NCBI GenBank assembly: GCA_040402335.1
Contig: JBBAMX010000008.1
Coordinates: forward strand, 4,925-68,924
Length of the DNA stretch: 64,000 nt
From: Candidatus Planktophila sp.
GTDB lineage: Bacteria > Actinomycetota > Actinomycetes > Nanopelagicales > Nanopelagicaceae
Reading direction: 5' to 3'
Shown: piece by piece, positions 4,832 to 29,459 of the stretch
Numbering within the stretch: position 1 is the stretch's first letter
Layout of the letters: each line of letters opens with the position of its first letter
Notes under the pieces: generated by a model
What the model was told of the DNA's origin: nothing
The model's database searches: none
Seen by the model: the letters and a program-made list of their open reading frames with translations, nothing else
Made by a program: the position numbers and the translations under genes

Positions 4832-5593
4832 ATGAGCGAGTTAGTAAATGGAACCCAGGCGATAGATCGAGCCAGTGCACTCCTTATCAACGTCCTTGAA
4901 TCATCGACTCCCCCATTATTATCTGAACTATCTCGTACTCATGAGATTCCTAAGAGTACAACATCTCGAATGTTAAGCGCCCTCGAACGCCAAGGTCTTG
5001 TCCGCCGAGATCGCAACGGCGCCTTTATCGCCGGTGATGTTTTAACCCAGTTTGCTCGCTCGCAAAATCATGACTCCGTGCTGGTCGCGCGTATGCACTC
5101 AGTCTTGGAAAAATTAGCAATGAGTACAGGTGAGACGGCCAACTTAGCGGTCTCCAGCAATAGTCAGATGAAGTTAATCGATCAAGTAGATGGTCACTAT
5201 CTATTGGGAGCGACAAACTGGATTGGAAAAGTAATTCCATTTCACGCATCGGCCCTTGGCAAGGTTCTTCTTGCATATGGCGCGGCGACAATTCCACTTG
5301 GAAAATTAGAAAAACTTACTTCTAAGACAATTACTGCGCGCCCCCGCTTATTAAGCGAACTCGAGAGCGTAAGAAAAAAAGGCTACGCGATTATCGTTGA
5401 CGAGCTTGAGGAAGGGCTCGTGGCGGTAGCTGCACCTATTCGTGAAGATGATGGCCGAGTGGTTGGTGCGATTTCAATCTCTGGACCATCGCCACGATTA
5501 ACACAGCGAGATTTAGCAAAGATCGGCGACGTTATTATCCAAGAGATTCACTCACTCCAAAGCCTCAATGAAGGAAAGATAGGTGCAGCATGA
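4832..5593 (+). CDS. IclR-family transcriptional regulator
   Basis: N-terminal HTH (QAIDRA...LSELS...PKSTTSRMLSAL) and C-terminal HASALGKVLLA and GYAI..DELEEGL.AVAAPI motifs. Confidence 0.92.
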   Translation: MSELVNGTQAIDRASALLINVLESSTPPLLSELSRTHEIPKSTTSRMLSALERQGLVRRDRNGAFIAGDVLTQFARSQNHDSVLVARMHSVLEKLAMSTGETANLAVSSNSQMKLIDQVDGHYLLGATNWIGKVIPFHASALGKVLLAYGAATIPLGKLEKLTSKTITARPRLLSELESVRKKGYAIIVDELEEGLVAVAAPIREDDGRVVGAISISGPSPRLTQRDLAKIGDVIIQEIHSLQSLNEGKIGAA

Positions 5594-6255
5594 CTCACGA
5601 TGACATCATCAAGGCGCTCTTTGACGAGACGTTGGTTGGAAACGCTCCCGCGGTTTTAGCGTTAACTAATCAAGGTATCGCCGATGGCATGACTCCCAGC
5701 ACAATTCTCTTCGATGCGCTTATTCCTGCGCTAGAAGAGGTTGGTGCCCGCTTTGAACGCGGCGATTTCTTCGTCCCAGAGATGCTGATCTCTGGCAAGG
5801 CGATGTCTGGTGCGCTGGCTGTACTGCGACCACTGCTTGCCGAGACCGGGGCTGAGACCGTTGGAACGTATTTAATGGGAACCGTAAAGGGCGATGTTCA
5901 CGATATCGGCAAGAACCTTGTCAACATCATGCTCGAGGGTGCTGGCTTTAACGTGATCGATCTCGGCGTCCAAGTGGCTCCGGAAAAATTCATCGCCGGA
6001 ATCCTGGAACACAAGCCCGATATCGTGGGAATGTCGGCATTCCTCACAACAACAATGCCGATGTTTAAAGTCAATATTCATGAAATTACTAAGGCTGGCC
6101 TGCGGGATGAAGTCTTTATCATGGTTGGTGGTGCGCCGGTAACACAGGAGTATGCCGATGTAGTTGGCGCCGATGGCTTTGCCGCCGATGCTTCGACTGC
6201 CGTTCGCATCGCTAAAAATCTAATCGCCAAGAAACGCGCAACGGTCTCCGTATAA
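5590..6255 (+). CDS. Stand-alone corrinoid (B12-binding) protein, MttC/MtbC/MetH-cobalamin-domain type
   Basis: Cap domain (FVPEMLISGKAM) plus the B12 motif GTVKGDVHDIGKNLV, SAFLTTT and VGGAPVTQEYAD. Confidence 0.93.
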   Translation: MTHDDIIKALFDETLVGNAPAVLALTNQGIADGMTPSTILFDALIPALEEVGARFERGDFFVPEMLISGKAMSGALAVLRPLLAETGAETVGTYLMGTVKGDVHDIGKNLVNIMLEGAGFNVIDLGVQVAPEKFIAGILEHKPDIVGMSAFLTTTMPMFKVNIHEITKAGLRDEVFIMVGGAPVTQEYADVVGADGFAADASTAVRIAKNLIAKKRATVSV

Positions 6256-6260
6256 GCCCT

Positions 6261-6641
6261 ATGTTAAAAAAACTGCTCCCCTTTATTGAGCATGCGGTAA
6301 AAAAACCCGTATGGGACTGTCGTATGTGCGGTCAATGTGTTTTGCATTCAACGGGTATGACTTGTCCCATGACTTGTCCGAAGACTTTGCGCAATGGGCC
6401 CTGTGGTGGAGTGCGCGAGAATGGAAACTGCGAAGTAAAACCTGAGATGCAGTGCATCTGGGTCAAAGCTTATGATCGAACAATCTCTCTTCCCTTACCT
6501 AAAGTGTGGAAGGAGCATTACAACGATCTCCGCCCACCTGTTGATATGCAGCTCCAAGGTAGCTCTTCGTGGATTAATTTAGTGACTAAGCGCGATCAGC
6601 AAACTCCTGATGGATGGTCGATCGAAAGTAGCGAGCATTGA
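6261..6641 (+). CDS. MetV-like Cys-rich protein (methylene-THF reductase C-terminal domain family)
   Basis: Eight Cys in CRMCGQC..TCPMTCPKTLRNGPCGG...NCEV...QCIW, overlapping the metF start. Confidence 0.8.
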   Translation: MLKKLLPFIEHAVKKPVWDCRMCGQCVLHSTGMTCPMTCPKTLRNGPCGGVRENGNCEVKPEMQCIWVKAYDRTISLPLPKVWKEHYNDLRPPVDMQLQGSSSWINLVTKRDQQTPDGWSIESSEH

Positions 6642-7537
6642 TATCCGTGCTCAAAGAAAAACTAGAGAGTACTAAAGATTTAGTCTTTACCGCCGAGTTC
6701 CCATCGATAGATGGTGGTGGAATGGAGTTCGTTGAAAAAAACGCTGCCCGCCTAGCTCCCTGGTTTGATGCGGTAAATGCCACCGATAACGCCGCCGCTC
6801 ACGCCCACGCATCAAACACCACAACGGCTGTTGCAATGAAGATGCATGGCTTAGAACCCATTATGCAGATTGTCTGCCGAGATAAAAACCGTATTGCAGT
6901 CCAGTCCGACATGATGGGCGCGGCGCTTCATGGGATTCCAAATATCTCTCTCCTAACAGGTGATGATGTAACTGCAGGAGATGAGCCCGAAGCCCGGAGA
7001 GTCTTTGACATCGATAGCGCTCAAGCTATTAACATCGCCCGAATAATGACGACCGGTAGTTATCTATCGGGTCGAAAGATAAATCCCGCCCCCGATTTCT
7101 ACATTGGTGCCGTTGAAAATGCCTGTGCACCGCCCTTTGATTATCGAATAGCTCGGGCGTTAAAAAAATACCGAGCAGGTGCTAAGTTTTTACAACTTCA
7201 AATCTCTTACCATCCGGATCGCCTTGAGAGCTTTTGTAGGGGTGTGGCCGAAGTCGCCCCAGATTTAAAACTTATTCCAACGATTGTGCTTTTAAAGTCG
7301 GCAAAGTCGCTCAACTTCATCAATGATAAGGTTCCGGGAATCGACGTACCTTCCAATACCTTGGCCCGGATAAACGCCGCGAGTGATGAAAAAAGTGAGA
7401 TTTATAATTTAACGTTGGAGCTAGCCCAACACGCACTCTCACTCCCAGGTGTTCGTGGTTTGCATGTAACTGATTTTCGACATGATGACTCGCTCGATAC
7501 TTTAATGAACGACCTAGGCAGAACACCGAAACGATAG
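6638..7537 (+). CDS. metF: Methylenetetrahydrofolate reductase
   Basis: TAEF, AVNATDN, CRDKNRIAVQSD, LTGD, KKYRAGAKFLQLQ. Confidence 0.85.
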   Translation: MISVLKEKLESTKDLVFTAEFPSIDGGGMEFVEKNAARLAPWFDAVNATDNAAAHAHASNTTTAVAMKMHGLEPIMQIVCRDKNRIAVQSDMMGAALHGIPNISLLTGDDVTAGDEPEARRVFDIDSAQAINIARIMTTGSYLSGRKINPAPDFYIGAVENACAPPFDYRIARALKKYRAGAKFLQLQISYHPDRLESFCRGVAEVAPDLKLIPTIVLLKSAKSLNFINDKVPGIDVPSNTLARINAASDEKSEIYNLTLELAQHALSLPGVRGLHVTDFRHDDSLDTLMNDLGRTPKR

Positions 7538-7547
7538 GGGTACAACT

Positions 7548-8432
7548 TTGCATACAGTTCTCTCTTCTCCTGGCCAAACGGTCACGATCGGTCACGATCA
7601 GCCCTTTTGTATTATCGGAGAGCGCATCAACCCCACGGGACGGAAAAAATTCCAACTCCAACTGCGAGAAGGAAACCTGACCGCGATTGAAAAAGATGTA
7701 GCCGATCAAATTGCAGGTGGTGCAAACGTGCTCGATGTAAATATGGGTGTTCCACTCACCGATGAACCCGCACTTTTATCTAATGCGATTAAGTTAATTC
7801 AATCTATTACCGATATGCCGATCTGCATCGACTCCTCAGTTATCGAGGCGCTACAGGCTGGACTTGAGGCCTATCAAGGCAAGGCGCTCGTGAACAGTGT
7901 TACGGGCGAGGATGAGCGAATGGAGCTCGTTCTGCCGCTCATTAAAAAACATGGTGCGGCGATAATCGCCCTGCCTAACGATGAGACTGGAATTCCAGCG
8001 ACGGCCGCCGAGCGGATGATTATCACTGAAAAAATAGTTAGAGCCGTTGAAAAACACGGGATTGCCTTAGAGGATTTAGTAATCGATCCCTTAGCAATGA
8101 CCGTTGGCGCCGATCCAGAGGCCGTTAAAATTACCTTAGAGACAATCTATTTAATCCGTGAAAAATGGGGATTGAATATGACCCTAGGTGCATCAAATAT
8201 CTCATTCGGGCTTCCTTACCGCCACGCTCTTAACGCCGCATTCCTGCCGGCGGCGATGTCACATGGATTAACTAGTGCGGTCATGGATGCGCGGACACCG
8301 CTCATCGTTGAATCAGTGCGTGCAGCCGATCTGCTTCTTGGACTAGATCCGTGGGGAGCCACTTGGATTACCCGCTTTAGAGCGATGGAGGCGGCGAAGT
8401 TAGCCGCGGCTGTGAATGGAACTGGTGAATAG
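7548..8432 (+). CDS. Pterin-binding methyltetrahydrofolate:corrinoid methyltransferase (MetH pterin domain / AcsE-like)
   Basis: IIGERINPTGRKK, LDVNMG, ICIDSS, LVNSVTGE, IDPLAMTVG, GASNISFGLP. TTG start. Confidence 0.9.
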   Translation: MHTVLSSPGQTVTIGHDQPFCIIGERINPTGRKKFQLQLREGNLTAIEKDVADQIAGGANVLDVNMGVPLTDEPALLSNAIKLIQSITDMPICIDSSVIEALQAGLEAYQGKALVNSVTGEDERMELVLPLIKKHGAAIIALPNDETGIPATAAERMIITEKIVRAVEKHGIALEDLVIDPLAMTVGADPEAVKITLETIYLIREKWGLNMTLGASNISFGLPYRHALNAAFLPAAMSHGLTSAVMDARTPLIVESVRAADLLLGLDPWGATWITRFRAMEAAKLAAAVNGTGE

Positions 8433-10339
8433 CTATTAGTAAAAAAGAGCTGGATCCATCACTTGTTCCAAGCCACGACGGAACCGGTCGGGTTCGCCTT
8501 GCCTTTAGATCGCTTGAAAAAGATAACTCGGTCTCATCGCAAAAAACTATAACCGTACCTACAGGCGTTAGTGCATTTGATGCAGCATCCTGGAACGGTA
8601 TCGCAATCGATTCAACCTGCGGTGGTTATGGGACGTGTAAAAAATGTCGGATTAAAATAACCGATGGAGATATCCAGCCCTCTAAATTAGATTTTCGTGC
8701 CTTCACCGAGAGTGAGATTAAAGCCGGCTGGCGTTTAGCCTGTCTAGTGCGAACGAGTACCGACATCTCAATCGATGTACCCCCGCTTACAACTAGACCC
8801 AAGGCTGCGACCGTTGGAGTTGGCAGGCAGGTCATTCTGCGGCCAGCGGTTCAAAAGCGTTATGTTGAGTTAGAAGAGCCGACCTTGCACGATCAACGCA
8901 CCGATATCGTTCGCCTATTTGATGCGATCGATGATATCGAGGCAACGGCCTCACTTGCGGCGATACGCAACGTTCCCCGTGTACTTCGTGCTGCCAACTT
9001 TAAAGTTACGGCAGTCTTTGTCGATCAAGCCTTTATCGATCTCGAAGCCGGAGACACCACCGCGTTTCGATATGGAATCGCATACGATCTCGGAACAACC
9101 ACCGTCGTGGCAACGCTGCTAGATCTCAATACAGGAGCTCCACTTGCCGTAAAATCAATATTAAATAAGCAGCAACCATTTGGTGCCGACGTCATTACTC
9201 GAATCAGTGCCACCATGCTCGATCCAGCGGCCCTTGAAAAACTATCAAGCCTGGCACAAGAGACCCTGAATCAACTCACGCAAGAGGTCTGCATCGAAGC
9301 CGGTATAGATCCGCTTCACGTATATGAGATCGCTATCGCTGGAAATGCAACGATGAACCAGCTGCTACTTGGAATCGATCCCGAACCTCTAGGGGTAGCT
9401 CCCTTTATTATGGCGGCAGCCGACTTCCCCGATGTGGATGCGCGCGATATCGGAATAGCGATTCATCCGCGGGCAAAGGCGGTTATTTTGCCCTCACTTG
9501 GGGCATATGTTGGTGGAGATATTATCGCTGGCGCCCTTGCCTCGGGAATGGATCGCGATAAACGGCTACGTTTATTTATCGATGTCGGCACTAACTGTGA
9601 GATTGTTTTAGGCGATGGAGAAAAGATTTTAGCTACCGCCGCCCCAGCTGGCCCAGCCTTTGAAGCTGCAAGTATTAAATGTGGTGTACGCGCCGCCTCT
9701 GGTGCGATCGAGACGATCAAAATCGTTGATGGCCAGTTAATTATCGGTACGATCGACGATACGCCGGCGATTGGAATCTGTGGCTCGGGCTTAGTCGATG
9801 CCTGCGCATCTTTAGTCGGTATTGGTTTACTCGATCTCTCGGGCCGCTTTGTAAGCGATGAAACTGCCCGAGAGATTGCGCCAACTCTCGCCGATCGATT
9901 ACTTTTGCGTGAAGGTGAGCGGGTATTTGTTTTAACATGGAGCAAAGAGGTTGGTGATTTAAGCGACTGTGTCTTTTTAACCCAGCGCGATGTTCGTGAA
10001 CTTCAATTTGCAAAGGCAGCGATCGCAACGGGATGGGCCCTGCTGCTTGAAGAGTTTGGTGTCGCCGAAGATGAGATTGCGCAGGTCTTACTTGCCGGAT
10101 CCTTTGGCTCCTACCTCTCCCCCGCCTCGGCTATCAAGATTGGGTTAGTACCTAAGTTATCGGTTATGCGAATCATGTCGGCCGGAAACGTTGCTGGTGA
10201 GGGCGCAAAGATGGTTTTACTTTCGGCGCAAGAGCGACACGGTGCTACTGCGCTGCTCAATGAGATCTCCTACGTCGAACTCTCTGATCGTGCCGATTTC
10301 AACGATAAATTTGTAGATCGATTAGCCTTCCCGGCATGA
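8429..10339 (+). CDS. RamA/RACo-type ATP-dependent corrinoid reductive activator (ASKHA) with N-terminal [2Fe-2S] domain
   Basis: The frame is open from 8429 (after in-frame TGA 8426-8428). It encodes STCGGYGTCKKC...GWRLAC upstream of the track's GTG 8747, followed by YDLGTTT, GADVITRI, DVGTNCE, AGPAFE, GICGSG and LAGSFG. The exact start is uncertain (non-canonical). Confidence 0.88.
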   Translation: MAISKKELDPSLVPSHDGTGRVRLAFRSLEKDNSVSSQKTITVPTGVSAFDAASWNGIAIDSTCGGYGTCKKCRIKITDGDIQPSKLDFRAFTESEIKAGWRLACLVRTSTDISIDVPPLTTRPKAATVGVGRQVILRPAVQKRYVELEEPTLHDQRTDIVRLFDAIDDIEATASLAAIRNVPRVLRAANFKVTAVFVDQAFIDLEAGDTTAFRYGIAYDLGTTTVVATLLDLNTGAPLAVKSILNKQQPFGADVITRISATMLDPAALEKLSSLAQETLNQLTQEVCIEAGIDPLHVYEIAIAGNATMNQLLLGIDPEPLGVAPFIMAAADFPDVDARDIGIAIHPRAKAVILPSLGAYVGGDIIAGALASGMDRDKRLRLFIDVGTNCEIVLGDGEKILATAAPAGPAFEAASIKCGVRAASGAIETIKIVDGQLIIGTIDDTPAIGICGSGLVDACASLVGIGLLDLSGRFVSDETAREIAPTLADRLLLREGERVFVLTWSKEVGDLSDCVFLTQRDVRELQFAKAAIATGWALLLEEFGVAEDEIAQVLLAGSFGSYLSPASAIKIGLVPKLSVMRIMSAGNVAGEGAKMVLLSAQERHGATALLNEISYVELSDRADFNDKFVDRLAFPA

Positions 10340-10920
10340 ACATCGGCATCGTGGCCTGCGGTGCGCTAGCCACACACATTAACGAGATTGCGATAGCTAA
10401 TAATCTTGACCTAACGATCTATCCGCTGCCGCCGTTGTTACATAATCGCCCTGAAAAAATCGCTGGCGAAGTCGACTCACTTCTACATGAGATAAAAGCA
10501 AAACATATTAAATGCGCCGTGGCCTACGCCGATTGCGGAACATACGGAGCCCTCGATGCGGTTATTCAAGCCCATGGTGTCGCCCGACTTCGTGGAAATC
10601 ACTGTTATGACATCTTTGCCGGAGCGGCCGAGATAGAGCGGTTAATGGAGCAAGATGCAGGTACGTACTTCCTAACGGATTTTCTCGTAAAATCCTTCCA
10701 TCGAAGCGTCATCGTTGAGCTTGGATTAGATAGATATCCCTACCTTCGCGATGACTACTTCAAAAACTATACGCGAGTGATCTGGTTGGCTCAGAGCCCA
10801 AGCCCCGAACTGGAAGCGGCCGCAGTCTCAGCGGCGGCTGAGATTGGCCTGCCACTTGAGATTCACAACGCCGGCGCTACCGGTTTAACTGCCCAGATTC
10901 TCGAACTAATTTCGCACTAA
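10336..10920 (+). CDS. DUF1638-family protein (associated with corrinoid reactivation)
   Basis: IVACGAL, LHNRPEKI, YADCGTYG, GNHCYDIFAG, GTYFLTDF, YFKNYTR. ATGA overlap with the activator gene. Confidence 0.75.
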   Translation: MNIGIVACGALATHINEIAIANNLDLTIYPLPPLLHNRPEKIAGEVDSLLHEIKAKHIKCAVAYADCGTYGALDAVIQAHGVARLRGNHCYDIFAGAAEIERLMEQDAGTYFLTDFLVKSFHRSVIVELGLDRYPYLRDDYFKNYTRVIWLAQSPSPELEAAAVSAAAEIGLPLEIHNAGATGLTAQILELISH

Positions 10921-13899
10921 TAAAATATCAAGCGCCTTTAATACTATGGGTGAGAGATCAGACTTACTCACATCAGTAAGCAGGCGATCAATCATTGCCG
11001 GGGTCCAGAATTGAACAATGTGGTGGGCGGTCTGTATCTCAGCTGCATCACCGGCTGGAATATTTACGGCGATCTGATTTGCCATTCGCACGATTGAATC
11101 TAACTGGGGATCATCCCCAATATGAGAATGAATCAGATCGCCAGGGGCTTTGTGCGTTGGTGAGATCTCAACGGCCGTAACTTTGTATTCAGGACAGTTG
11201 GTAGCCCAATCTGAGAATTCTGTGGTGATTACGTTAGCCCCGCTTTCTGGAAAGTGAAAGGTCGTATAAACCACACCGGCCGGCACTTCATCGCTTATGT
11301 GCGCCTTCAAAACCGTTTCACCGACGCGACTAGCGAGCTTGACCCAACTACCTTCAGTGATTCCACGAAGGAGAGCATCGGATTCATGGATATCTAAGAT
11401 GTCCTCGGTATGCCAAATATTATTTGCCGTCCTACGTGTCTGGGCGCCGACGTTGTACTGACTTAAAACCCGCCCCGTTGTCAGTAAGAGTGGATACTGC
11501 CGTGTCGCCTTTTCATCGGTGGGAACATACTCGGTGCGCATAAAGCGACCCTCACCCCGAACAAACTCATCGACATGCATCGTTGGTGTGCCTTCAGGAT
11601 GTGCCTCGTTGCATGGCCATTGAATACTTCCCAACTCATCCAACTTTGCAAATGAGACTCCAGCAAAAGTCGGCGTAGTAGCCGCTATCTCAGCCATGAT
11701 TGCCGCACCGTTCTCATAGGCCATCGGATAACCCATCGCCGTAGCTAAATCACATGTGACTTCATACTCGCTCTTACCCGTTTTAGATTTCATAACAGGA
11801 CGTACTCGGTTGATGCGCCGTTCGGCGTTTGTAAAAGTTCCATCTTTTTCTAGAAAAGATGTGCCAGGTAAGAAGACGTGGGCAAACTTTGAGGTCTCAT
11901 TAAGGAAGAGATCTTGGACAATCACCATATCCATCGCCCGCAGCGCGGCATGTACGTGCGAGATATTGGGATCGGACTGTGCGATATCTTCGCCTTGAAC
12001 ATAGAGACCTCGATACTCGCCGGCGATTGCAGCATCAAACATATTTGGAATTCGCATTCCAGGTTCGGCCTGTAGCTCTATCCCCCAAGCATCATTAAAT
12101 ATCGCTCGCGTCTGTGGATTTGATATATGGCGGTAGCCCGAAAGCTCATGCGGGAATGAGCCCATATCGCACGAGCCCTGAACATTGTTCTGCCCACGCA
12201 GTGGATTTACGCCGACGCCTTTGCGACCAATATTTCCAGTGGCCATCGCAAGGTTTGCTATTCCCATCACCATCGTTGAGCCCTGGCTATGCTCGGTGAC
12301 GCCTAATCCATAGTAAATTGAGCCATTTTTAGCGTTAGCAAAGAGGTGGGCAGCGGCTCGAATCTGCGCCGCTGGAACCCGTGATGATTGCTCCATCGCC
12401 TCTGGCGAGTTTTGCGGCAGTTTAATAAAACGCTCCCACTCTTTAAATGAGGCTTCATCACAGCGCGCTTCCACAAACTCACGCTTTATTAAGCCATCGG
12501 TTGCGATCACGTGGGCTAGTGCGTTGATAACGGCTACGTTGGTGCCGGGCATTAATTGAAGATGATGGGCTGCGACGACCCCGGGTGTTCGAACCAGCGC
12601 AATAACTCGCGGATCGATGACAATTAAGACAGCGCCCTTTCGAATCGCCTGCTTCATACGTGAGGCAAAAACTGGGTGAGCCGATGTTGGATTCGCGCCG
12701 ATGAGCATAATCACATCGCTGTGCTCTACCGACTCGAAATCCTGAGTACCTGCCGATGTTCCAAATGTCTGGCCGAGGCCATAGCCAGTAGGTGAGTGAC
12801 ACACTCGCGCACAGGTATCCACATTATTATTTCTAAAGGCGGCGCGCACCATTTTTTGGACAACAAATACCTCTTCATTAGTGCATCTCGATGAAGTAAT
12901 TCCACCGATCGCATTAACGCCGTTCTCTTTTTGAATCTTCTTTAAGCCATCGGCGGCAAAAGCAATCGCCTCGGCCCATGAGACCTCTCTCCAATCATCG
13001 CTAATCGTATTTCTAATCAAAGGCTTTGTGATCCGATCGCTGTGAGTGGCATATCCATAAGCAAAGCGCCCCTTTACACAGGAGTGCCCCTCATTAGCGC
13101 CACCAGATTTAAGCGGAACCATCCGAACAAGCTCTTCTCCGCGCATTTCGGCTTTGAATGAACAGCCAACGCCGCAGTAAGCACAGGTAGTAATGATCGA
13201 CGATGTCGGTGCTCCGATTGTAAGCAAACTCTTTTCAGTCAGTGCACCCGTTGGACAGGCTTGAACACAGGCACCACATGAAACACACTCACTCTCTATG
13301 AATGATGTACCCGATGAGGAGACTCGAGCTTTGAACCCACGGTTTTCAATAGTCAATGCAAAGGTTCCCTGAACTTCATCACATGCTCGCACGCATCGAT
13401 TACAGACAATGCACTCAGTTGAATCAAAGGTAAAGTATGGATTGCTCTCATCTTTCGCTAAATCCAAATGTGTATCGCCACCGGCATATCTGCTGGTCTC
13501 GATTCCAAGTTTTTTAGCGACGCCATGGAGTTCGCACTCATCCCCTGTTGCACATTTTGCGGGATGATCCGATAAGTAAAGCTCCATAACGCCTTTACGG
13601 ATTCGATCAATCTTTTCCGAACGAGTAGTAACCTTCATTCCCTCGGCAACGGGAGTAGTGCAAGAGGATGGCGTCCCGTTTCGTGCATCGACTTCAATGA
13701 TGCATAGCCGACATGAGCCAAAAGCCTTTAAGGAATCGGTGGAGCAGAGCTTTGGAATCTCAATGCCTGCTTCAAGGGCGGCGCGCATGATCGAAGTTGC
13801 AGCGGCGACAAGAATCGGACGACCATCGATCTCAAGGCTCACCTGCGCTAGCTTTGCACTAGCCGGGGTGCCGAAATCTGGCTCGTAAATCATCGTCAT
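10906..13899 (-). CDS. fdsA: NAD-dependent Mo formate dehydrogenase alpha subunit with C-terminally fused FdsD domain
   Basis: [2Fe-2S] GSCRLC, [4Fe-4S] CIVCNRC/CVSCGAC, TCAYCGVGC, active-site CARVCHS (Cys, not Sec), PLRGQNNVQG, EYKVTAV, then an FdsD-like RMANQIA...HIVQFW. Confidence 0.95.
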   Translation of the reverse strand: MTMIYEPDFGTPASAKLAQVSLEIDGRPILVAAATSIMRAALEAGIEIPKLCSTDSLKAFGSCRLCIIEVDARNGTPSSCTTPVAEGMKVTTRSEKIDRIRKGVMELYLSDHPAKCATGDECELHGVAKKLGIETSRYAGGDTHLDLAKDESNPYFTFDSTECIVCNRCVRACDEVQGTFALTIENRGFKARVSSSGTSFIESECVSCGACVQACPTGALTEKSLLTIGAPTSSIITTCAYCGVGCSFKAEMRGEELVRMVPLKSGGANEGHSCVKGRFAYGYATHSDRITKPLIRNTISDDWREVSWAEAIAFAADGLKKIQKENGVNAIGGITSSRCTNEEVFVVQKMVRAAFRNNNVDTCARVCHSPTGYGLGQTFGTSAGTQDFESVEHSDVIMLIGANPTSAHPVFASRMKQAIRKGAVLIVIDPRVIALVRTPGVVAAHHLQLMPGTNVAVINALAHVIATDGLIKREFVEARCDEASFKEWERFIKLPQNSPEAMEQSSRVPAAQIRAAAHLFANAKNGSIYYGLGVTEHSQGSTMVMGIANLAMATGNIGRKGVGVNPLRGQNNVQGSCDMGSFPHELSGYRHISNPQTRAIFNDAWGIELQAEPGMRIPNMFDAAIAGEYRGLYVQGEDIAQSDPNISHVHAALRAMDMVIVQDLFLNETSKFAHVFLPGTSFLEKDGTFTNAERRINRVRPVMKSKTGKSEYEVTCDLATAMGYPMAYENGAAIMAEIAATTPTFAGVSFAKLDELGSIQWPCNEAHPEGTPTMHVDEFVRGEGRFMRTEYVPTDEKATRQYPLLLTTGRVLSQYNVGAQTRRTANNIWHTEDILDIHESDALLRGITEGSWVKLASRVGETVLKAHISDEVPAGVVYTTFHFPESGANVITTEFSDWATNCPEYKVTAVEISPTHKAPGDLIHSHIGDDPQLDSIVRMANQIAVNIPAGDAAEIQTAHHIVQFWTPAMIDRLLTDVSKSDLSPIVLKALDILLVRN

Positions 13900-15419
13900 T
13901 TCGCTGCTCCTGTGAAATCGGATGGGAAGTTAATCATCGCACTCTTTACCGGTAATGGTGTGAGTCCACCCATCGCACAGAGGGAGCCCTCGCTCATTAC
14001 CTCACATAGATCAAGTAGGAGCCGCTTATTTTCATCGACTTCAACGCCTCGAATTATTAAATCGATTGTTTCAGCCCCGCGAGTGGAGCCGATACGACAG
14101 GGCGTGCATTTGCCGCAGGATTCAATGGCACAAAACTCCATCGCAAACTTGGCTTGTACCGCTAAATCAACGCTCTCATCAAAGACCACGATGCCGCCAT
14201 GGCCTAACATACCCCCGGCTGCAATCAGGGATTCATAGTCCATCGAAACGCCAAACTGCGCAGTAGAGAAATAGGCGCCAAGTGGGCCACCGACCTGGAC
14301 CGCTCGCACAGCTCGCGCACTCAAGCTACCTCCACCATATGTATTGACTAAATCCTCGAGAGTTACACCGAAGGCTTTTTCAACGATTCCACCGCGCGCA
14401 ATATTTCCAGCTAATTGAAAGACCTGAGTTCCGAGTGAGCGCCCTACTCCCCGCTCTTTATATGCTTGAGATCCCTGGGCCAAAATCATTGGAACTGTAG
14501 CCAGAGTGAGCACGTTATTTATAACCGTTGGTTGGCCAAAGAGGCCTTCAACTGCTGGCAGTGGAGGCTTAGCTCGAACTACTCCACGCTTTCCTTCAAT
14601 GCTCTCTAACATTGCAGTCTCTTCGCCACATACATAAGAGCCGGCACCGATTCGAATCGAGATATTAAAGCTATGCGTTGTGCCGAGCACGCTTTCGCCC
14701 AACAAGTTACTCGCTCGAGCGATATCGATCGCTTTCTGCATGGTTGTAATTGCTGCAGGATACTCAGAGCGAATATAAACAATGCCGAGCGTTGCTCCAA
14801 CTGTAATCCCTGCAATTGTCATGCCTTCGATCAAAGTAAATGGATCACCCTCCATTAACATACGGTCGGCAAACGTTCCGCTATCTCCCTCATCGGCGTT
14901 ACAACAAATATATTTCTGAACTGCAGGAGTTTGTAATACGGTCCGCCACTTAATGCCAGCTGGAAAGCCTGCTCCGCCTCGTCCACGAAGGCCCGAATCG
15001 CTCAGTTCATCAATTATCTCTTGCGCGCTAAGTGTGAGCGCCCGCTTTAATCCAACTAAGCCACCGTGTTCGCGATAATCATCAAGGGATAGTGGATCGA
15101 TAATCCCAACGCGAGCAAAAGTGATTCGATCTTGCGAAGCTAGCCATTCAATCCCATCGGTTGCACCAAGTGAAAGCCGATGTGGGCCACCTGAAAGAAA
15201 ATCGGCTTCAAAGAGTGAGCCGACATCGTTGGGCATGACGGGGCCATATGCGATGCGCCCACTAGGAGTCTGCACTTCTACAAGGGTCTCAAGCCATAAC
15301 GCACCCCGCGAACCATTTCTTACAATCTCTACCGCTGGATCTATCCGCGCGATTTCGCGGGCGACTTCATCTGCACCGATCGAGACCGCGGCGCTATCAA
15401 TCGGCACATAGACTCTCAT
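13896..15419 (-). CDS. fdsB: Formate dehydrogenase beta (NuoF-like, FMN/NAD-binding) subunit
   Basis: GLRGRGGAGFP, CNADEGDSGTFADR, GAGSYVCGEET, SCGKCTPCRIG, SLCAMG. Confidence 0.95.
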   Translation of the reverse strand: MRVYVPIDSAAVSIGADEVAREIARIDPAVEIVRNGSRGALWLETLVEVQTPSGRIAYGPVMPNDVGSLFEADFLSGGPHRLSLGATDGIEWLASQDRITFARVGIIDPLSLDDYREHGGLVGLKRALTLSAQEIIDELSDSGLRGRGGAGFPAGIKWRTVLQTPAVQKYICCNADEGDSGTFADRMLMEGDPFTLIEGMTIAGITVGATLGIVYIRSEYPAAITTMQKAIDIARASNLLGESVLGTTHSFNISIRIGAGSYVCGEETAMLESIEGKRGVVRAKPPLPAVEGLFGQPTVINNVLTLATVPMILAQGSQAYKERGVGRSLGTQVFQLAGNIARGGIVEKAFGVTLEDLVNTYGGGSLSARAVRAVQVGGPLGAYFSTAQFGVSMDYESLIAAGGMLGHGGIVVFDESVDLAVQAKFAMEFCAIESCGKCTPCRIGSTRGAETIDLIIRGVEVDENKRLLLDLCEVMSEGSLCAMGGLTPLPVKSAMINFPSDFTGAAK

Positions 15420-15841
15420 CGGCGGGCCTGAGTTATTTTTTCAACTGTTGCGCGTCCAATGAGCTGGCCATCGACCATGACGGCGGGACCAAGTGCGCAG
15501 TTACCAAAGCAGTATGCGTCATGGCTCTCTTGCCCATAGATTGCTTTAATCTCTCGCTCCAAACTCCGTCCACCAACTGCCTGACACGCTTCGGCCACGC
15601 AGATTGAGATCTGATGCTGCGCTGGGGGCGTCGTACGCAGATCGTGATAGAAAGTTAGAACGCCATGAACATCTGCTCTAGTTTTATTAAAAAAATTTGC
15701 AATCAGTACAACCGACGCTTTATCCACGTAACCAAACTCTTTCTGCATCGCCTGCAGAGCCATTAATACCGGGCCTTTTTCTTCACGCAAAATCGCAAGG
15801 AGCTCTAAGGCCCGCACTTGTGACCACGGTGGATACTTCAT
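15416..15841 (-). CDS. fdsG: Formate dehydrogenase gamma (NuoE-like, [2Fe-2S]) subunit
   Basis: RADVHGVLTFYHD, ICVAEACQA, YCFGNCALGPA. Confidence 0.92.
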   Translation of the reverse strand: MKYPPWSQVRALELLAILREEKGPVLMALQAMQKEFGYVDKASVVLIANFFNKTRADVHGVLTFYHDLRTTPPAQHQISICVAEACQAVGGRSLEREIKAIYGQESHDAYCFGNCALGPAVMVDGQLIGRATVEKITQARR

Positions 15842-17505: not shown

Positions 17506-17507
17506 TT

Positions 17508-18467
17508 TTATCCCTTAGCTTGACGTATGGCGCTAGTAAGCGCAGGTATTATTTGGTGTAAGTCACCGATAATTGCATAGTCGGCATAACGTAAAATTGG
17601 AGCTTCGGGATCGGTATTGATAACAACTATCGTCTTACTATTTTTCATGCCCGCTATATGTTGCATCGCACCTGAAATTCCAGCGGCGATATATAAATCT
17701 GGAGCAACCTTGGTGCCGGTCTGCCCCACTTGTTCGGCATGAGGTCGCCAACCAGAGCTGGTAACTACCCGAGAGCAGCCCACAGCGCCTCCGAGCAGGG
17801 CGGCTAAATCCTCTAGATTACCAAAGCCGTCGGCGCCACCTACTCCTCGGCCACCTGAAACAATCACTTTGGCATCGTTAAGTGTGACTCCAGCCTTAGT
17901 TTGAGCAGAGCCCCGACTAAGAATCTTTACAACATAATCTTGCGGCTCTAATGCGGGTGTAAAGACTGCAACAGTTGCCGCTGCTCCACTTACTGATATC
18001 GCTTCAAATGAGAAATTGTTGACCGTTGCAATTAATAACTCTTCATGAACATTGGCCGATTCAATTAAATTACCGGCCCAACGTGCTCGAAGAACTTGGT
18101 GTGGATGCCCCAAAGCGATCTCTAAACACTCCGCCGCCATCGGTACATCTAAAAATGCAGCCAGGTGGGCTAACTGTTCATTGCCTCGTGGGGTTCCAGC
18201 GGCTAGAACGGCGGCTGGTGAGAGTTTTTCTACTAAATCTTTAAGCGCACGGCCCGATGCCATTGGTGTGTAATCGGTAATCAAATCATGCTGTGCAACA
18301 TGTAAAACCTTTGCACCAAATTCGCCGATGAGGCCCGCTAAAGCTGCACCCTGGCTACCAATGACTACCGCCTCAATATCTTGGCCCAAGCCACGAGCGG
18401 CAGTGAGAGCTCTGAGTGAGAGTGAATCTATCTCTCCTCGGTCGTGATCGATGAGAACTAAAATCAT
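17508..18467 (-). CDS. etfA: Electron transfer flavoprotein alpha subunit
   Basis: [36 protein letters not shown]. Confidence 0.93.
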
Positions 18468-19222
18468 TAGAAGGCCCCAATCGATTTAAGCACTTCGACT
18501 AATGCGGGTACCGCATCCGTGCCTTTTCCTAAAATCTCAGCGCCTTTATCTTTCGAAGGAGCCAGACTCAACTTAACCTTCTCAAGCTTTGGAAGCCGAG
18601 ACTCAGCCTGTTTTACCTCTACGGTTTTTTTGCGTGCCTGCATGCGCCCTGGTACTGAGGGATAGCGTGGAATATTTAAGCCATCGCGAACCGTAATGAT
18701 CGCAGGTAAGGGTGCTTCATAGTGTTCGCGACCATCTGAAACAACTCGTTCACAGTTCACGACACCATTTTCTACTCTCATCGACTTTACATTAGTAATA
18801 ATCGGGCGATTAAGTGCGTGAGCGATGCGGATATGAATCTGGTACCCAGCGCTATCGGCCGATTCTGCACCGAAAATAATCAAATCAAATTTAGTCGCAT
18901 CGGCATTTATCGCTTCAACTAAGGCGCTAGCGGTTCCTTGGGGGTCCCACTCCTGGCCATCGGTCTCAATCAAAACCGCCCTCGTTGCACCGATTGCCAA
19001 CTGCGAACGAAGCTGCTCCTCTGCATCACTTGGCCCAAGTGTCAGTAGCGTCAGAGTGCCGCCCATCTGTTCGACTAGTTGAACCCCGGCTTCAACGGCA
19101 TTTTCCTCATGGGGACTGATTCCAAAACCTAGATGTTTCGTTTCAATATCGCGAGAATCGGGCGTTAAAATCAGCGCTCCACCAGCTAATGGAACGCGCT
19201 TGAGGCAGACAAGTACATCCAT
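18467..19222 (-). CDS. etfB: Electron transfer flavoprotein beta subunit
   Basis: VLVCLKRVP, NAVEAG, LAIGATRA, PRYPSV. Coupled to etfA. Confidence 0.9.
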   Translation of the reverse strand: MDVLVCLKRVPLAGGALILTPDSRDIETKHLGFGISPHEENAVEAGVQLVEQMGGTLTLLTLGPSDAEEQLRSQLAIGATRAVLIETDGQEWDPQGTASALVEAINADATKFDLIIFGAESADSAGYQIHIRIAHALNRPIITNVKSMRVENGVVNCERVVSDGREHYEAPLPAIITVRDGLNIPRYPSVPGRMQARKKTVEVKQAESRLPKLEKVKLSLAPSKDKGAEILGKGTDAVPALVEVLKSIGAF

Positions 19223-21741
19223 TAGGCCATAATCCGTTCATTGGATGAGTCAAATACCGATGTGGCACCGACTTCGGCGATAGAGCATGGGTAGTGCTCA
19301 CCGAGATATTCAACTAAGAATTTGTTACCAGCAACAGCCAACTCGGTGGGTAGATATGACATCAAGATGTGCTTGCCCAATGATGGTGCAGAGCCCGCAC
19401 TTGTGACATATGAGCGACGCCCATGTGAATCGATGATAGGTGCTTTCTCTAAGCTCAAGATAGGTTCATTGCCCATCATGTAACGCTTTTCACCCGTTGA
19501 CGAAGTGTGGTCATCTACGAATAGTGTGCACAGCATCGTGACCGGTTTTTCACTTCGATGCTTAACATGGGCGGCTTTCCCGATAAAATCCGCATCTTTT
19601 AACTTAGGCGACTGCATGCCAGCTTCAACAACGGTGTATTCACTCTCTAGCTCTGGCCCATAAGCGCGATATGACTTTTCAAGTCGACCCGTAGTGCCAT
19701 AAACACCGATTCCAACGGGGATCATTGAATGCTTTTTACCCGATGCCCAAAGCATCTCCCACAGCTTGGCACCTTGTTCGATTGGAATATAAAACTCCCA
19801 GCCAAGATCGCCCACGTATGAGATTCGAGAGGCCAGTACACGCAATGGTCCTATCTCAATAACTTTACATGTACTGAATTTAAATGCATCTTTACTCATA
19901 TCGGCCGAAGTAATCTCTTGAATAATCTCACGTGCCTTAGGTCCCCATAGCCCCAGTGTTGTGTAGTTCGAGGTTAAGTCAGATATCTGTGCAGAGCCAT
20001 CGCCCGGCAATAGATCACTGAACCACTTTTTATCGGCCATTCCATGTGCCCCACCCGTTACCACGCGAAAATGATCGATATCTAAACGCATGATTGTCAG
20101 ATCTGATTTGAAGCCACCATTAGGACCAAGCACGGGTGTATAAACCACACGGCCAAGGGCAACATCCATCTGTCGCAACGCCGCTTTCTGGACAACCGAA
20201 AGCGCAGCTGGCCCAGTTATATCAAAGATGAAAAAAGCTGAAAGATCTACTAGGCCAGCGCTCTCGCGCATCTGCAAGTGCTCGGCATTGATAATAGGTG
20301 ACCACCAGCGCGACTCCCACTCGCTACTACGTGGCATTACCCTGTCACCAAATTTTGCGAGCAGCTCTTTGTTTGACTCATACCAAAATGGTCGCTCCCA
20401 GCCAGCGGTCTCATAAAAGACGGCACCCAACTCTTTTTCGGCAGCGTAAAAAGGTGATAGCCGAACATTTCGATTTGACGCATACTGTTCAAGTGGATGG
20501 ACTATTCCATAGGTCTTATTAAAACTCTCATCGACTCGGGCTTTAATATGAAACTCCGACTTCTGATGCTCATGAAAGCGCGCGATATTTGATGCATGCA
20601 AATCAATCTGAGAATCTCCAAGAACCATCCATTCGGCAACTGACTTCGATGTTCCTGGACCCTCTTTAATCCAGACCGCAGCCACCGACCACAATCCCTT
20701 TACCTCAGGAGTTTCACCGAGAATCGGCATTCCATCGGGAGTATAAGAGAGGATTCCATTACAAGCATATTTCTCCCGAACATTTTCATCCCCAACAATT
20801 GAAGGCATGAGCTCATAGGCATGCTCATCTTGGATATCAAAATCTGATTGAGTGAAAGCGAACTCGGTCGGGGATAACGTGGCCGTTGCATTTGATGGAA
20901 TGTCATCTGGAGTGTAAAGAATCGGACGGTGCGCATAGGATCCAATCTCTAACCCAGTACCGTGCTGACGCTCGTACATAAATACATCCATGTCGCGCAC
21001 AATTGGCCACTCAATATCACCCTTTGTATCCTTGAAAAATGGAACCGGTCCGATGTCCTTCATCTGATGGACTGCAGGTGTTAAGGGAATATTGGCTCCA
21101 GCCATTGCCGCCAATTTCGGAGACCAACAGCCCGTTGCGATAACAACATAATCGGCGGCGATCGTGCCGTGATCGGTAACCACACCAGTTACGCGCCCAT
21201 TTTCAACGGTGATATCTAATACTTCAATATTTGCAAAGGACTGTGCCGCACCCATCTCAGCCGCACTTTCGCGCATTAAAGTGCCGGTACGCAGTGAGTC
21301 AACGACACCCACGCTTGGCTGGTAATAACCTCCGAGAATGATGCTCTCGTCAATATAAGGAACTAGCTCTTTCACCTGCGCCGGAGTCAGGATCTGCCCG
21401 CCCTCGATGCCCCATGATTTAGCCGATGTAATTCGGCGGGCAAGCTCTTGCATACGCTCAGGTGTGCGGGCAACTTCAACTCCGCCGGTCTGCGTAAACG
21501 TACCCCACTCCTTATATTGGCGCATACTCTCGGCGGTAATCGCTGTCATCTCTTTTGAATGATCTACTGGAAATATAAAGTTGGATGCATGTCCGGTTGA
21601 ACCACCAGGATTCGGTAATGGCCCTTTATCAATCTGGACAAGATCACTCCAGCCTAGCTTTGCAAGATGGTAAATCATGCCGTTGCCAACTATTCCAGCG
21701 CCGATAACAACGCACTTCGCCTTGGCAGGTAACTTACTCAT
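19222..21741 (-). CDS. FAD/THF-dependent N-methylamino-acid dehydrogenase (dimethylglycine oxidase/dehydrogenase-like, DAO plus GcvT domains)
   Basis: VVIGAGIVG, GGSTGHA, YTPDGMPILG, RERPFWY-like GWERPFWY, SRISYVGDLGWE, RLEKSYR. 839 aa. Confidence 0.88.
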   Translation of the reverse strand: MSKLPAKAKCVVIGAGIVGNGMIYHLAKLGWSDLVQIDKGPLPNPGGSTGHASNFIFPVDHSKEMTAITAESMRQYKEWGTFTQTGGVEVARTPERMQELARRITSAKSWGIEGGQILTPAQVKELVPYIDESIILGGYYQPSVGVVDSLRTGTLMRESAAEMGAAQSFANIEVLDITVENGRVTGVVTDHGTIAADYVVIATGCWSPKLAAMAGANIPLTPAVHQMKDIGPVPFFKDTKGDIEWPIVRDMDVFMYERQHGTGLEIGSYAHRPILYTPDDIPSNATATLSPTEFAFTQSDFDIQDEHAYELMPSIVGDENVREKYACNGILSYTPDGMPILGETPEVKGLWSVAAVWIKEGPGTSKSVAEWMVLGDSQIDLHASNIARFHEHQKSEFHIKARVDESFNKTYGIVHPLEQYASNRNVRLSPFYAAEKELGAVFYETAGWERPFWYESNKELLAKFGDRVMPRSSEWESRWWSPIINAEHLQMRESAGLVDLSAFFIFDITGPAALSVVQKAALRQMDVALGRVVYTPVLGPNGGFKSDLTIMRLDIDHFRVVTGGAHGMADKKWFSDLLPGDGSAQISDLTSNYTTLGLWGPKAREIIQEITSADMSKDAFKFSTCKVIEIGPLRVLASRISYVGDLGWEFYIPIEQGAKLWEMLWASGKKHSMIPVGIGVYGTTGRLEKSYRAYGPELESEYTVVEAGMQSPKLKDADFIGKAAHVKHRSEKPVTMLCTLFVDDHTSSTGEKRYMMGNEPILSLEKAPIIDSHGRRSYVTSAGSAPSLGKHILMSYLPTELAVAGNKFLVEYLGEHYPCSIAEVGATSVFDSSNERIMA

Positions 21742-21774
21742 ACTTATTTATCCCCGTTTTCGTGTGATTGTGGT

Positions 21775-22437: not shown

Positions 22438-22445
22438 GAGGGTGA

Positions 22446-22455: not shown

Positions 22456-22489
22456 GTCTTATCGATATTGATACACAGCGAGGCGGGTT

Positions 22490-23224: not shown

Positions 23225-23246
23225 GCCCTAACCATACAATGCCATT

Positions 23247-23492: not shown

Positions 23493-23515
23493 TATTTATC
23501 GACAAGAGGAGAGAA

Positions 23516-24887: not shown

Positions 24888-24905
24888 GCCGATTACTCTA
24901 ATTCT

Positions 24906-26075: not shown

Positions 26076-26665
26076 TTATCCTTCATGGGAATAAGAAAAG
26101 CGATTGCGCGCTCAAGATCTACGGCGGTATCGATATCGATAAGAGATTTTGAACTCTGCGCATCGATTGCTATCTCATGAACTTTCAAATGCGCCAGTAG
26201 CTCTCGCATCGATTTTCCCTGTGGTTCTCCTAAAATCCTAAAAGCTCGTTGTAAAGCACTCATGCGATAAACGGCTGCGAATGGTTGCGCAAACTCTTGC
26301 GCATCTACATACATCACTGACTCATCATCGGCCTCGAGAGAGTTTAAGAGTAAGGGAGTTACTGCCATCACAAATGGCATATCGGTGGCTATCAAAATAA
26401 CTAAATTGCTAGTGCAAAGTTCAAGCCCCGCCTTAAATCCGGCGACCGGCCCCCCACCCGGTGGGGCCTCTTGGGTGCAGATGTAATGTGTAGTTTTAAT
26501 CATTGGATCGGCTCCAACTATTACTATCTCAAAATCTGGTGGAATTGAGGCGAGGATCCAACTGATCAAAGATTGACCAGCTAGCAATGCGCGTGATTTA
26601 TCGCTGCCAAAACGCTTGCTCGTACCACCGCTTAAGATGATGACGCTCGCGCTTTTACTTTGCAC
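26072..26665 (-). CDS. mobA: Molybdenum cofactor guanylyltransferase (NTP-transferase)
   Basis: ILSGGTSKRFGSDKS, GGPVAG, ATDMPF, DIDT. Start reassigned to GTG 26665, where the domain begins. Confidence 0.85.
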   Translation of the reverse strand: MQSKSASVIILSGGTSKRFGSDKSRALLAGQSLISWILASIPPDFEIVIVGADPMIKTTHYICTQEAPPGGGPVAGFKAGLELCTSNLVILIATDMPFVMAVTPLLLNSLEADDESVMYVDAQEFAQPFAAVYRMSALQRAFRILGEPQGKSMRELLAHLKVHEIAIDAQSSKSLIDIDTAVDLERAIAFLIPMKDN

Positions 26666-26683
26666 GTCACTAGGATACTGACT

Positions 26684-28240: not shown

Positions 28241-28272
28241 CTGCACATCAAGCTTCCTATAGAATTAAGCAC

Positions 28273-28569
28273 ATGAGCGAGTATCAGATAATGCGTTGGC
28301 GTGAAATTCCATCAATGGTGATCGCACGTGCCGGTGAGACAACAATAAAAGTGATGCTTGAATCACGCTTTCAAGAAGCTATAGATGAGGCCGCTATGCG
28401 ATTAGGCGCAATCGATGCCGATGCATATACCTCGGGCTGGAACCGCGGAGCCTGGATCGAATCAAGTGAGTCTCCAGATGTGCTTGCACCCCGCATAGCT
28501 AGCGAGTTAGAGGCAGAGTTGAGCGTTGAAAAACTAGAAGAGTTATTAAACAATTTAGGTGAAAAATAA
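28273..28569 (+). CDS. Small 'virulence factor' domain (PF13769-like) protein of unknown function
   Basis: WREIPSMV, RFQEAIDEAAM, DAYTSGW. Stop overlaps the next ATG. Confidence 0.7.
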   Translation: MSEYQIMRWREIPSMVIARAGETTIKVMLESRFQEAIDEAAMRLGAIDADAYTSGWNRGAWIESSESPDVLAPRIASELEAELSVEKLEELLNNLGEK

Positions 28570-29459
28570 TGTCAGCAATCTATGAGGCGTTAGAAAAGGC
28601 AACTCTGGTTTCAGATGGAGCGATGGGGACCATGCTGCAAGATCGCGGACTCACCGATGGTGGTGCGCCAGAGCTTTGGAACGTCGAAAAACCCGATCAA
28701 ATTGAGTCGGTCTTAGAGGGGTATGCAGCCGCTGGGGCACGATTCATTACAACTAATACTTTTGGTGGAACTCATGGTCGCTTGGCGATGCATGGTTTAG
28801 AAGATCGCCTATTTGAGCTCAATCAAGCCGGTGCCCAGATCGCACGAAGAGTTGCCGATCGACATCCTGGCTGTTTTGTTATGGGAGATATTGGACCCTC
28901 TGGAGATCTCATGGAGCCAATGGGCACAATGACTCTTGAAAGCGGTCAGGCGTTATTTGCCGAACAGATCCGCGCACTTGTCGCCGGCGGTGTCGATGCG
29001 ATTCTCATCGAGACAATGTCGGATTTAGGCGAGGTCGAGGCGGCAGTAAACGCCGCAAAAGAGGTCGCACCCGGAATGCCGATTATTACCATGATGAGTT
29101 TTGATACCAACCTTCGAACGATGATGGGAGTTAAGCCAGGAATGGCAGTTACTCATATCGCTGGGCTTGGAGTTCGCATCATCGGCGCAAACTGTGGTCG
29201 AGGTACGGATGAAATGTTAGTTTTAGCCGAAGAGATGGTTAAGGCTCGGCCAGAGGGAGTATTTATTATTACTCAATCAAATGCTGGTCTACCAAAACTC
29301 CAAGGTGATGAGTTCATTTACGACGGCACCCCCGCAGAGATGGCTAAACATGCAAATAAGATGAAAGAGATCGGCGTAAATATCATTGGCTCCTGTTGTG
29401 GATCGACACCAGCCCATACTGCCGCAATCGCCGCTGCCATTACGGCGACATCTGCTTAA
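28569..29459 (+). CDS. Stand-alone homocysteine S-methyltransferase domain (split MetH)
   Basis: VSDGAMGTML, PELWN, TNTFGG, GDIGPSG, IETMSD, Zn ligands GANCG and IIGSCCGST. No B12, pterin or AdoMet domains. Confidence 0.9.
   Translation: MSAIYEALEKATLVSDGAMGTMLQDRGLTDGGAPELWNVEKPDQIESVLEGYAAAGARFITTNTFGGTHGRLAMHGLEDRLFELNQAGAQIARRVADRHPGCFVMGDIGPSGDLMEPMGTMTLESGQALFAEQIRALVAGGVDAILIETMSDLGEVEAAVNAAKEVAPGMPIITMMSFDTNLRTMMGVKPGMAVTHIAGLGVRIIGANCGRGTDEMLVLAEEMVKARPEGVFIITQSNAGLPKLQGDEFIYDGTPAEMAKHANKMKEIGVNIIGSCCGSTPAHTAAIAAAITATSA

Follow-up and report, generated by a model that had tools for sequence, protein, structure and literature searches.

The locus described here raises the question of how a freshwater actinobacterium without a conventional methionine synthase makes its methionine, and whether it draws for this purpose on the same corrinoid protein that serves its betaine demethylase. 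The locus lies in a 64 kb stretch of DNA from Candidatus Planktophila sp. (contig C8:4925-68924, hereafter the window; the assembly comprises 1.43 Mb in 29 contigs and is 99.5% complete), in which the modules of cobalamin-dependent methionine synthase (MetH) are carried by separate genes. Our analysis makes it likely that these genes form an actinobacterial (acI-A) version of the MtgBCDE system, which would be the sole methionine synthase of the genome and would hold its corrinoid carrier in common with the betaine demethylase. We favor this reading because the genome has no MetH or MetE alternative, because the genes are homologous to the MtgBCDE locus, and because co-occurrence of the components and complementarity with MetH are seen in relatives. 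It is a known system, demonstrated for marine Proteobacteria (2018, 2025), in a new host, phylum and habitat, and the idea of a corrinoid branch point has already been published for Ruegeria and Phaeobacter (PMC12478193, PMC5764234).

We scanned the window for open reading frames (ORFs) and called protein domains by Pfam profiles, and also by NCBIfam models with their cut-offs. The frames lie exactly where the original prediction, made from the letters of the DNA, had placed them. The components of the proposed system, in which THF stands for tetrahydrofolate, MTHFR for methylene-THF reductase and HMT for the homocysteine S-methyltransferase, are as follows.

3260-4696, minus strand: non-pyrrolysine MttB-family methyltransferase of the MtgB type, probably glycine betaine:corrinoid (Pfam MTTB, 602 bits)
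5590-6255, plus strand: corrinoid protein of the MtgC type, the proposed shared methyl carrier (Pfam B12-binding_2, 58 bits; B12-binding, 96 bits)
6261-6641, plus strand: MetV-like, Cys-rich MTHFR partner (Pfam DUF5981/MTHFR_C, 92 bits; 49% identity to the Sinorhizobium meliloti homologue)
6638-7537, plus strand: MetF-type methylene-THF reductase (Pfam MTHFR)
7548-8432, plus strand: methyl-THF:corrinoid methyltransferase of the MtgD type (Pfam Pterin_bind, 99 bits)
8435-10339, plus strand: RACo/RamA-like reductive activase (Pfam Fer2 plus RACo linker, middle and ASKHA domains)
10336-10920, plus strand: DUF1638 protein (Pfam DUF1638, 77 bits; 38% identity to the S. meliloti homologue)
28273-28569, plus strand: acidic 98-aa PF13769 ('virulence factor') protein (Pfam, 50.5 bits)
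28569-29459, plus strand: stand-alone HMT of the MtgE/Bmt type, 296 aa, the proposed methylcorrinoid:homocysteine module (Pfam S-methyl_trans, 228 bits)

The cobalamin, pterin and homocysteine modules are separate genes by both ORFs and Pfam, and a RamA-type activator and a DUF1638 protein are present, all as originally predicted. The homocysteine module, placed by that prediction some 20 kb away in its own operon, lies 22.3 kb from the corrinoid gene and has a coupled upstream partner: the stop of the PF13769 gene overlaps the HMT start as TAATG, an arrangement of translational coupling. The lack of an S-adenosylmethionine (AdoMet) reactivation domain, also predicted, holds for the whole genome, where PF02965 has no match at E<=1. 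A full-length metH or metE elsewhere had been left as a possible source of methionine, and neither was found at this completeness; for MetE, PF01717 and the core-MetE model gave no match in the whole genome. On the separate window ORFs the MetH model TIGR02082 scores 126-178 bits per piece with a cut-off of 1011, which shows that they are not a single-polypeptide MetH.

The remainder of the genome offers no other methionine synthase. Pterin_bind is limited to FolP and the window gene, and the one true protein with a B12-binding domain is the window corrinoid protein; a weak second PF02310 match on contig C11 was rejected as a second B12 protein and belongs to a radical SAM enzyme of the MiaB/RimO type. 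The genome's sole MTHFR (PF02219) is the window MetF-type gene, and E. coli MetF gave no tblastn match in the genome. The MetV/MetF pair would have to serve both the oxidation of methyl-THF (CH3-THF) and any supply of CH3-THF for methionine. There are two S-methyl_trans genes, the window HMT and an MmuM-type gene at C5:207-1037 on the minus strand, which passes NF007020 (311 bits, cut-off 215). The stop of the latter lies about 200 nt from the contig end, and we rejected it as a truncated MetH. MmuM-type enzymes use S-methylmethionine or AdoMet, with no net gain of methionine. Since the genome encodes S-adenosylhomocysteine (SAH) hydrolase, and four PF01053-type genes besides, the cell forms homocysteine and has to remethylate it. 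Four S. meliloti proteins of cobalamin synthesis, CobN, CobO, CobU and CobW, had no tblastn match in the genome, in a search that did not extend to the anaerobic route or to transporters. Import is the probable origin of the cobalamin that its only methionine synthase requires.

All ten window components, the PF13769 protein among them, are 32-48% identical to their counterparts at the S. meliloti MtgBCDE locus. There, the region around bmt (CP090106.1) encodes MttB-family, cobalamin-binding, DUF1638, PF13769, MetV, MetF, methyl-THF:cobalamin methyltransferase and ASKHA/RACo proteins. The window corrinoid protein has the DxHxxG His-on motif intact (DVHDIG, residues 102-107) and shares 44% identity with the cobalamin-binding protein of S. 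meliloti; it scores under the NCBIfam MtgC cut-offs (196 vs 370 bits). The pterin enzyme passes NF005719 (304 bits, cut-off 259) and is 46% identical to S. meliloti MtgD. MttB, a single copy in the genome, contains no in-frame stop and no amber codon, and scores 391 bits to MtgB of Desulfitobacterium hafniense and 410 bits to the S. meliloti structure 4yyc. Of the four residues with which D. hafniense MtgB binds betaine (listed in PMC13080624), Y97, R312 and H348 are kept, and F356 is replaced by glycine. This glycine lies in a W-L-E-G-G segment that is common to 4yyc, and may be a signature of an aerobic subgroup of MttB.

What kind of homocysteine methyltransferase HMT is can be judged from its motifs, its scores and its place in a tree. 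The zinc ligands Cys209, Cys276 and Cys277 are present, set in GxNC and GSCCG as is usual for MetH. Compared with solved structures, HMT scores 175 bits to the Thermotoga maritima MetH domain, 62 to human BHMT and 46 to the MmuM type (5dml). Its top NCBIfam model is PRK07534/NF005718, 'betaine--homocysteine S-methyltransferase', at 277 bits and under the cut-off of 338, followed by the YitJ N-terminus and MetH; the MmuM model NF007020 is not passed (84 bits, cut-off 215). In a plasmid and chromid collection, the annotated gene that matches best is S. meliloti bmt (43% identity); with the MetH proteins of its own family, the Nanopelagicaceae, HMT shares no more than 34-40% identity. We built a quick tree of 159 homocysteine domains, made up of 138 representatives of 50%-identity clusters plus references. 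The Bmt references were those of S. meliloti, Terrarubrum and Paracoccus, and the R. pomeroyi and P. inhibens sequences are not in it. The window HMT falls in a clade of 82 nearly all stand-alone sequences (SH-aLRT 96), within which it groups with the three Bmt references (SH-aLRT 92). The MetH domains of five Nanopelagicaceae genomes and of Streptomyces form a separate clade (SH-aLRT 100), and the MmuM outgroup is far from HMT. This placement apart from local MetH argues that the HMT gene is not a recent fragment of it.

The distribution of the genes among relatives bears on whether HMT works with the corrinoid protein. Homologues that are 83-91% identical occur in Candidatus Planktophila, in other Nanopelagicaceae and in freshwater metagenome-assembled genomes, including the closed genome of IMCC19121 (CP015605.1). 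We sampled 151 genomes of the order, each with a completeness of 90% or more; all belong to the one family Nanopelagicaceae, and 12 genera are represented. HMT is present in 38 of them (72-100% identity) and an MtgC orthologue in 39. The two occur together in 37 genomes, HMT alone in one (G112) and MtgC alone in two (G057 and G121). MetH, which in non-carriers of HMT is a frame of 1130-1260 aa when full-length, is absent from 27 of the 38 carriers compared to 6 of the 113 non-carriers. MetE is found in four of the 151 genomes, none of which has HMT. Fisher tests, uncorrected for phylogeny, give p = 1e-31 for HMT and MtgC and p = 1.5e-15 for HMT and the absence of MetH. Within the window's own genus (72 sampled genomes), all 19 HMT carriers lack a full-length MetH, four closed genomes among them. 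Both MetH and the split system are retained in a genus whose genomes are larger (1.8-2.1 Mb). This pattern fits an ancestor with both systems, which may then have undergone reciprocal loss during streamlining. In six sampled genomes both MetH and HMT are missing. A close homologue was found in only 4 of 400 other genomes in a phylum-wide sample.

In six genomes the genes of the corrinoid block keep strict synteny, and the PF13769-HMT pair stays joined at each of the distances seen from mtgC, namely 15-26 kb, 130 kb and about 800 kb (the last in G053 and G103). The co-occurrence of HMT and MtgC holds even at the separations of 130 kb and about 800 kb. One genome, G057, has an intact block from mttB to the DUF1638 gene together with MetH, and neither HMT nor PF13769. 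HMT therefore behaves as a substitute for MetH and not as a part of betaine catabolism. Since in relatives HMT is found together with the corrinoid protein and takes the place of MetH, these data support the idea of a shared hub.

On this basis we propose the following mechanism. Glycine betaine would be the methyl donor from which MttB (MtgB) methylates the genome's one corrinoid protein (MtgC) in its Co(I) state. MtgD would move the methyl group to THF, for oxidation via MetVF, formate-THF ligase and formate dehydrogenase, and in reverse it would load MtgC from CH3-THF, a route that presumes MtgD and MetVF to be bidirectional. HMT would then take the methyl group from methyl-MtgC, by a presumed physical hand-over, to give methionine. 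The RACo/RamA-like activase and the DUF1638 protein would repair the oxidized Co(II) form, in place of the AdoMet domain of MetH. Gene content and position suggest that MttB and HMT share the carrier; the MttB gene divergently adjoins the only corrinoid gene of the genome.

The partner gene of HMT provides a further link to the corrinoid machinery. A PF13769 gene lies directly upstream of HMT in 65 of 77 loci and is found in 33 of the 38 HMT-positive genomes and in none of the 113 without HMT; five HMT-positive genomes lack any PF13769 match. PF13769 tracks HMT and not the demethylase. One clade of Nanopelagicaceae, with an HMT about 78% identical, has no PF13769 gene upstream (loci L060, L062-L064, L066, L072, L074, L075, L077-L080), and at L060 a histone-deacetylase-like gene on the opposite strand stands in its place. 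The protein contains no cysteine and no histidine, and its structure is predicted with confidence (pLDDT 88.6). A Foldseek comparison of the model against the PDB returned nothing significant (best E-value 0.18, TM-score below 0.3).

Elsewhere, PF13769 is found in corrinoid systems directly. The PF13769 gene of Azoarcus KH32C lies between those for DUF1638 and metV, inside a corrinoid operon. On a plasmid of Terrarubrum flagellatum (L127:9001-11280) and in seven further clusters (P0392-P0398), PF13769 is fused to the N-terminus of Fer2-RACo in proteins of 743-766 aa. This is the only PF13769 fusion that we use as evidence, as it is represented by eight clusters, including an isolate. Two other fusions, one with MTHFR (P0399) and one with both a corrinoid protein and DUF1638 (P0400), were set aside: each is a single metagenomic call in which the domains match only in part, and either may be a read-through artefact. 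Since PF13769 is fused to RACo and occurs inside corrinoid operons, it connects the HMT operon with the corrinoid and activase machinery in a way that does not rely on the betaine context.

These observations lead us to a tentative idea, to which we give clearly less weight than to the system as a whole. The PF13769 protein may be an undescribed subunit of aerobic corrinoid systems, a small, redox-inert adaptor that docks RACo and/or HMT onto the corrinoid protein and that in acI could be dedicated to the methionine-synthase arm. The reasons are that the gene is coupled to HMT, is present only where HMT is present, is missing from the genome with MtgBCD plus MetH, and is fused to RACo elsewhere. 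The protein goes unmentioned in PMC12478193 and in a 2025 bioRxiv paper, and the PF13769 link may be the one element here that is new.

A competing explanation has to be weighed most carefully. HMT could be only a direct, cofactor-free betaine/onium:homocysteine S-methyltransferase, with a purely catabolic corrinoid system and with methionine dependent on imported betaine, as proposed for SAR11. Several points weigh against a corrinoid-dependent synthase, and most of them speak for this alternative. The HMT gene sits within an island for betaine and C1 oxidation, and co-occurrence with such an island is equally expected of a direct betaine-homocysteine methyltransferase. The top NCBIfam model of HMT bears this very name, and the P. 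inhibens orthologue turns betaine or dimethylsulfoniopropionate (DMSP) directly into methionine in vitro (PMC12366255). In addition, G112, an HMT-positive genome in 180 contigs, has no detected MtgC, and the phyletic statistics ignore shared ancestry. However, the HMT score lies under the cut-off of that family (277 vs 338 bits), and its likeness to true BHMT is weak compared with that to the MetH domain (62 vs 175 bits). Mutants of P. inhibens and R. pomeroyi in mtgC or mtgD are methionine auxotrophs in the absence of betaine (PMC5764234, PMC12478193), the PF13769 protein coupled to HMT goes with the corrinoid and RACo machinery, and G057 has kept MtgBCD and MetH and lost HMT and PF13769. We therefore consider direct betaine use as the only activity of HMT unlikely.

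It is less probable still that HMT and the corrinoid cluster merely share one genomic island, with methionine imported and HMT acting in a minor salvage reaction unrelated to MtgC. The streamlined state of acI genomes, the six sampled genomes without MetH and HMT, and the spacing of HMT and MtgC by 15-26 kb in many genomes are all compatible with such hitch-hiking. Yet HMT and MtgC still occur together when some 800 kb apart, in the genus with both systems (G053, G103), an either/or pattern with MetH across the 72 genomes of one genus would not be expected, and the presence of SAH hydrolase means that homocysteine needs a sink. Finally, although HMT has the Pfam domain and the stand-alone size of an MmuM/YagD-type S-methylmethionine or AdoMet:homocysteine methyltransferase, this identity is highly improbable, given the true MmuM-type gene on contig C5 (311 bits on NF007020, cut-off 215) and the low scores of the window HMT on that model (84 bits) and to 5dml (46 bits), as well as its distance from the MmuM outgroup on the tree.

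Taken together, the lack of an alternative synthase, the MtgBCDE homology, the stand-alone HMT clade and the co-occurrence support the original prediction that the single corrinoid protein is a branch point. The prediction also called an actinobacterial version of this architecture notable; the host is indeed new, but the branch point itself had been shown genetically in R. pomeroyi in 2025 (PMC12478193). It had further treated direct use of betaine as an alternative that excludes the corrinoid route. This opposition does not hold, since the P. inhibens orthologue of HMT acts as part of a split synthase in vivo and uses betaine or DMSP directly in vitro (PMC12366255). The window HMT may also use betaine directly.

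The published systems closest to the present one are found in R. pomeroyi DSS-3 as well as in P. inhibens. The genetic precedent cited by the original prediction is confirmed by Price et al., who reported that P. inhibens needs three module proteins, a RamA-like protein and DUF1638 for methionine prototrophy, DUF1638 being a B12 reactivation partner in the genetics of that organism (PMC5764234). Mausz et al. found that R. pomeroyi MtgC and MtgD are needed for both methionine synthesis and betaine demethylation, equated the S. meliloti 'Bhmt' with MtgE, and assigned 5% of ocean mtgC reads to actinobacteria (PMC12478193, 2025). The genome table of that study contains no Actinobacteria, and our literature search found no prior description of Planktophila with MttB, methionine synthase or betaine.

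As in the two roseobacters, Planktophila has separate homocysteine (PF02574), pterin (PF00809) and B12 (PF02607 plus PF02310) proteins, a RamA-like Fer2-RACo (DUF4445) activase and DUF1638 that replace the AdoMet domain, and a non-pyrrolysine MttB whose corrinoid protein, judging from the genes, would be a common one. MetH and MetE are likewise absent, mtgE lies outside the mtgBCD operon, and a MetF gene, a second one in the roseobacters, adjoins mtgD. The differences are several. The predicted Planktophila system belongs to an actinobacterium of fresh water, whose genome measures 1.4 Mb and gave no match to the cobalamin-synthesis proteins searched for. This host has a single MttB, compared to up to seven in roseobacters, and its MetVF-type enzyme is the only MTHFR. 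The whole pathway, including formate dehydrogenase, formate-THF ligase, electron transfer flavoprotein (ETF) and dimethylglycine dehydrogenase, is packed into one island, and HMT is translationally coupled to the PF13769 protein.

More distant systems differ in other respects. S. meliloti, unlike Planktophila, also has a full MetH with a reactivation domain (PMC5764234). Its PF13769 gene heads a metV-metF-mtgD operon and does not accompany bmt, whereas that of Planktophila is coupled to HMT, and its Bmt is 337 aa long compared to 296 aa here. The anaerobic glycine betaine demethylase of D. hafniense (MtgB/MtgC/MtgA plus RamA) follows the same logic of a corrinoid protein and a THF methyltransferase, but belongs to an anaerobe and has no homocysteine arm. 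Canonical MetH, as in E. coli, Thermotoga and most Nanopelagicaceae, shares the chemistry, the three domain families, the zinc cysteine triad and the DxHxxG motif; in Planktophila, by contrast, the modules are in separate genes, HMT is in another clade and there is no AdoMet reactivation domain.

The start of the activase gene deserves comment. The linker, middle and C-terminal RACo domains are encoded at 8747-10339, and a frame open from 8429 adds an intact N-terminal Fer2 (2Fe-2S) domain. Within 8429-8746 there is no ATG, GTG or TTG ahead of the Fe-S cysteines, and a canonical start is likewise absent in two relatives (G038 and G059). In seven of seven genomes an isoleucine codon (ATT, ATC or ATA) opens the conserved peptide I-(S/A)-K-K-E-L. 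The start in the window is probably the ATT at 8435-8437, and the pattern points to conserved non-canonical initiation, with a frameshift disfavored.

The neighboring genes in the window complete a betaine and C1-oxidation island.

739-1767, minus strand: ProV-like ABC ATPase with a CBS domain, a betaine-type importer ATPase (Pfam ABC_tran plus CBS)
1780-3252, minus strand: aldehyde dehydrogenase, co-transcribed with mttB (Pfam Aldedh, 510 bits; syntenic in six relatives)
4832-5593, plus strand: IclR-family regulator, divergent from mttB and first gene of the corrinoid operon (Pfam HTH_IclR plus IclR_C; position kept in relatives)
10906-21741, minus strand: C1-oxidation block of FdsA (with fused FdsD), FdsB, FdsG, formate-THF ligase, ETF alpha and beta, and dimethylglycine/sarcosine dehydrogenase (Pfam)

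The ProV-like ATPase is 45.5% identical to the glycine betaine/proline ABC ATPase of the S. meliloti MtgBCDE locus, and its position is kept in relatives. The C1-oxidation block adjoins the corrinoid operon in every relative checked, with molybdenum-cofactor genes next to it. Its FdsA is a formate dehydrogenase alpha subunit of 997 aa (10906-13899, minus strand), to the C-terminus of which the FdsD domain (PF11390, residues 936-990) is fused. The PF13769-HMT operon is preceded by an intergenic gap of 32 nt, with a TAGAAT box 7 nt upstream of the PF13769-gene ATG. An Rfam search of the whole window at gathering thresholds found no riboswitch or leader upstream of this operon or near the corrinoid operon, and the sole matches were two tRNA genes (34596-34791, minus strand).

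In lakes, the acI bacteria, or Nanopelagicaceae, rank with the most abundant bacteria. If the proposed system is true for about one quarter of their species (38 of the 151 sampled genomes), then B12 requirement, methionine supply and the use of methylated osmolytes would be linked in them, and genome surveys based on MetH would wrongly score such lineages as methionine auxotrophs. The clean either/or relation to MetH seen within a single genus would amount to evidence from nature that the split system is a complete functional substitute, and a cultured carrier exists in IMCC19121. The PF13769 link would put forward a definite candidate for a component that is still missing from a system under current study in marine bacteria.

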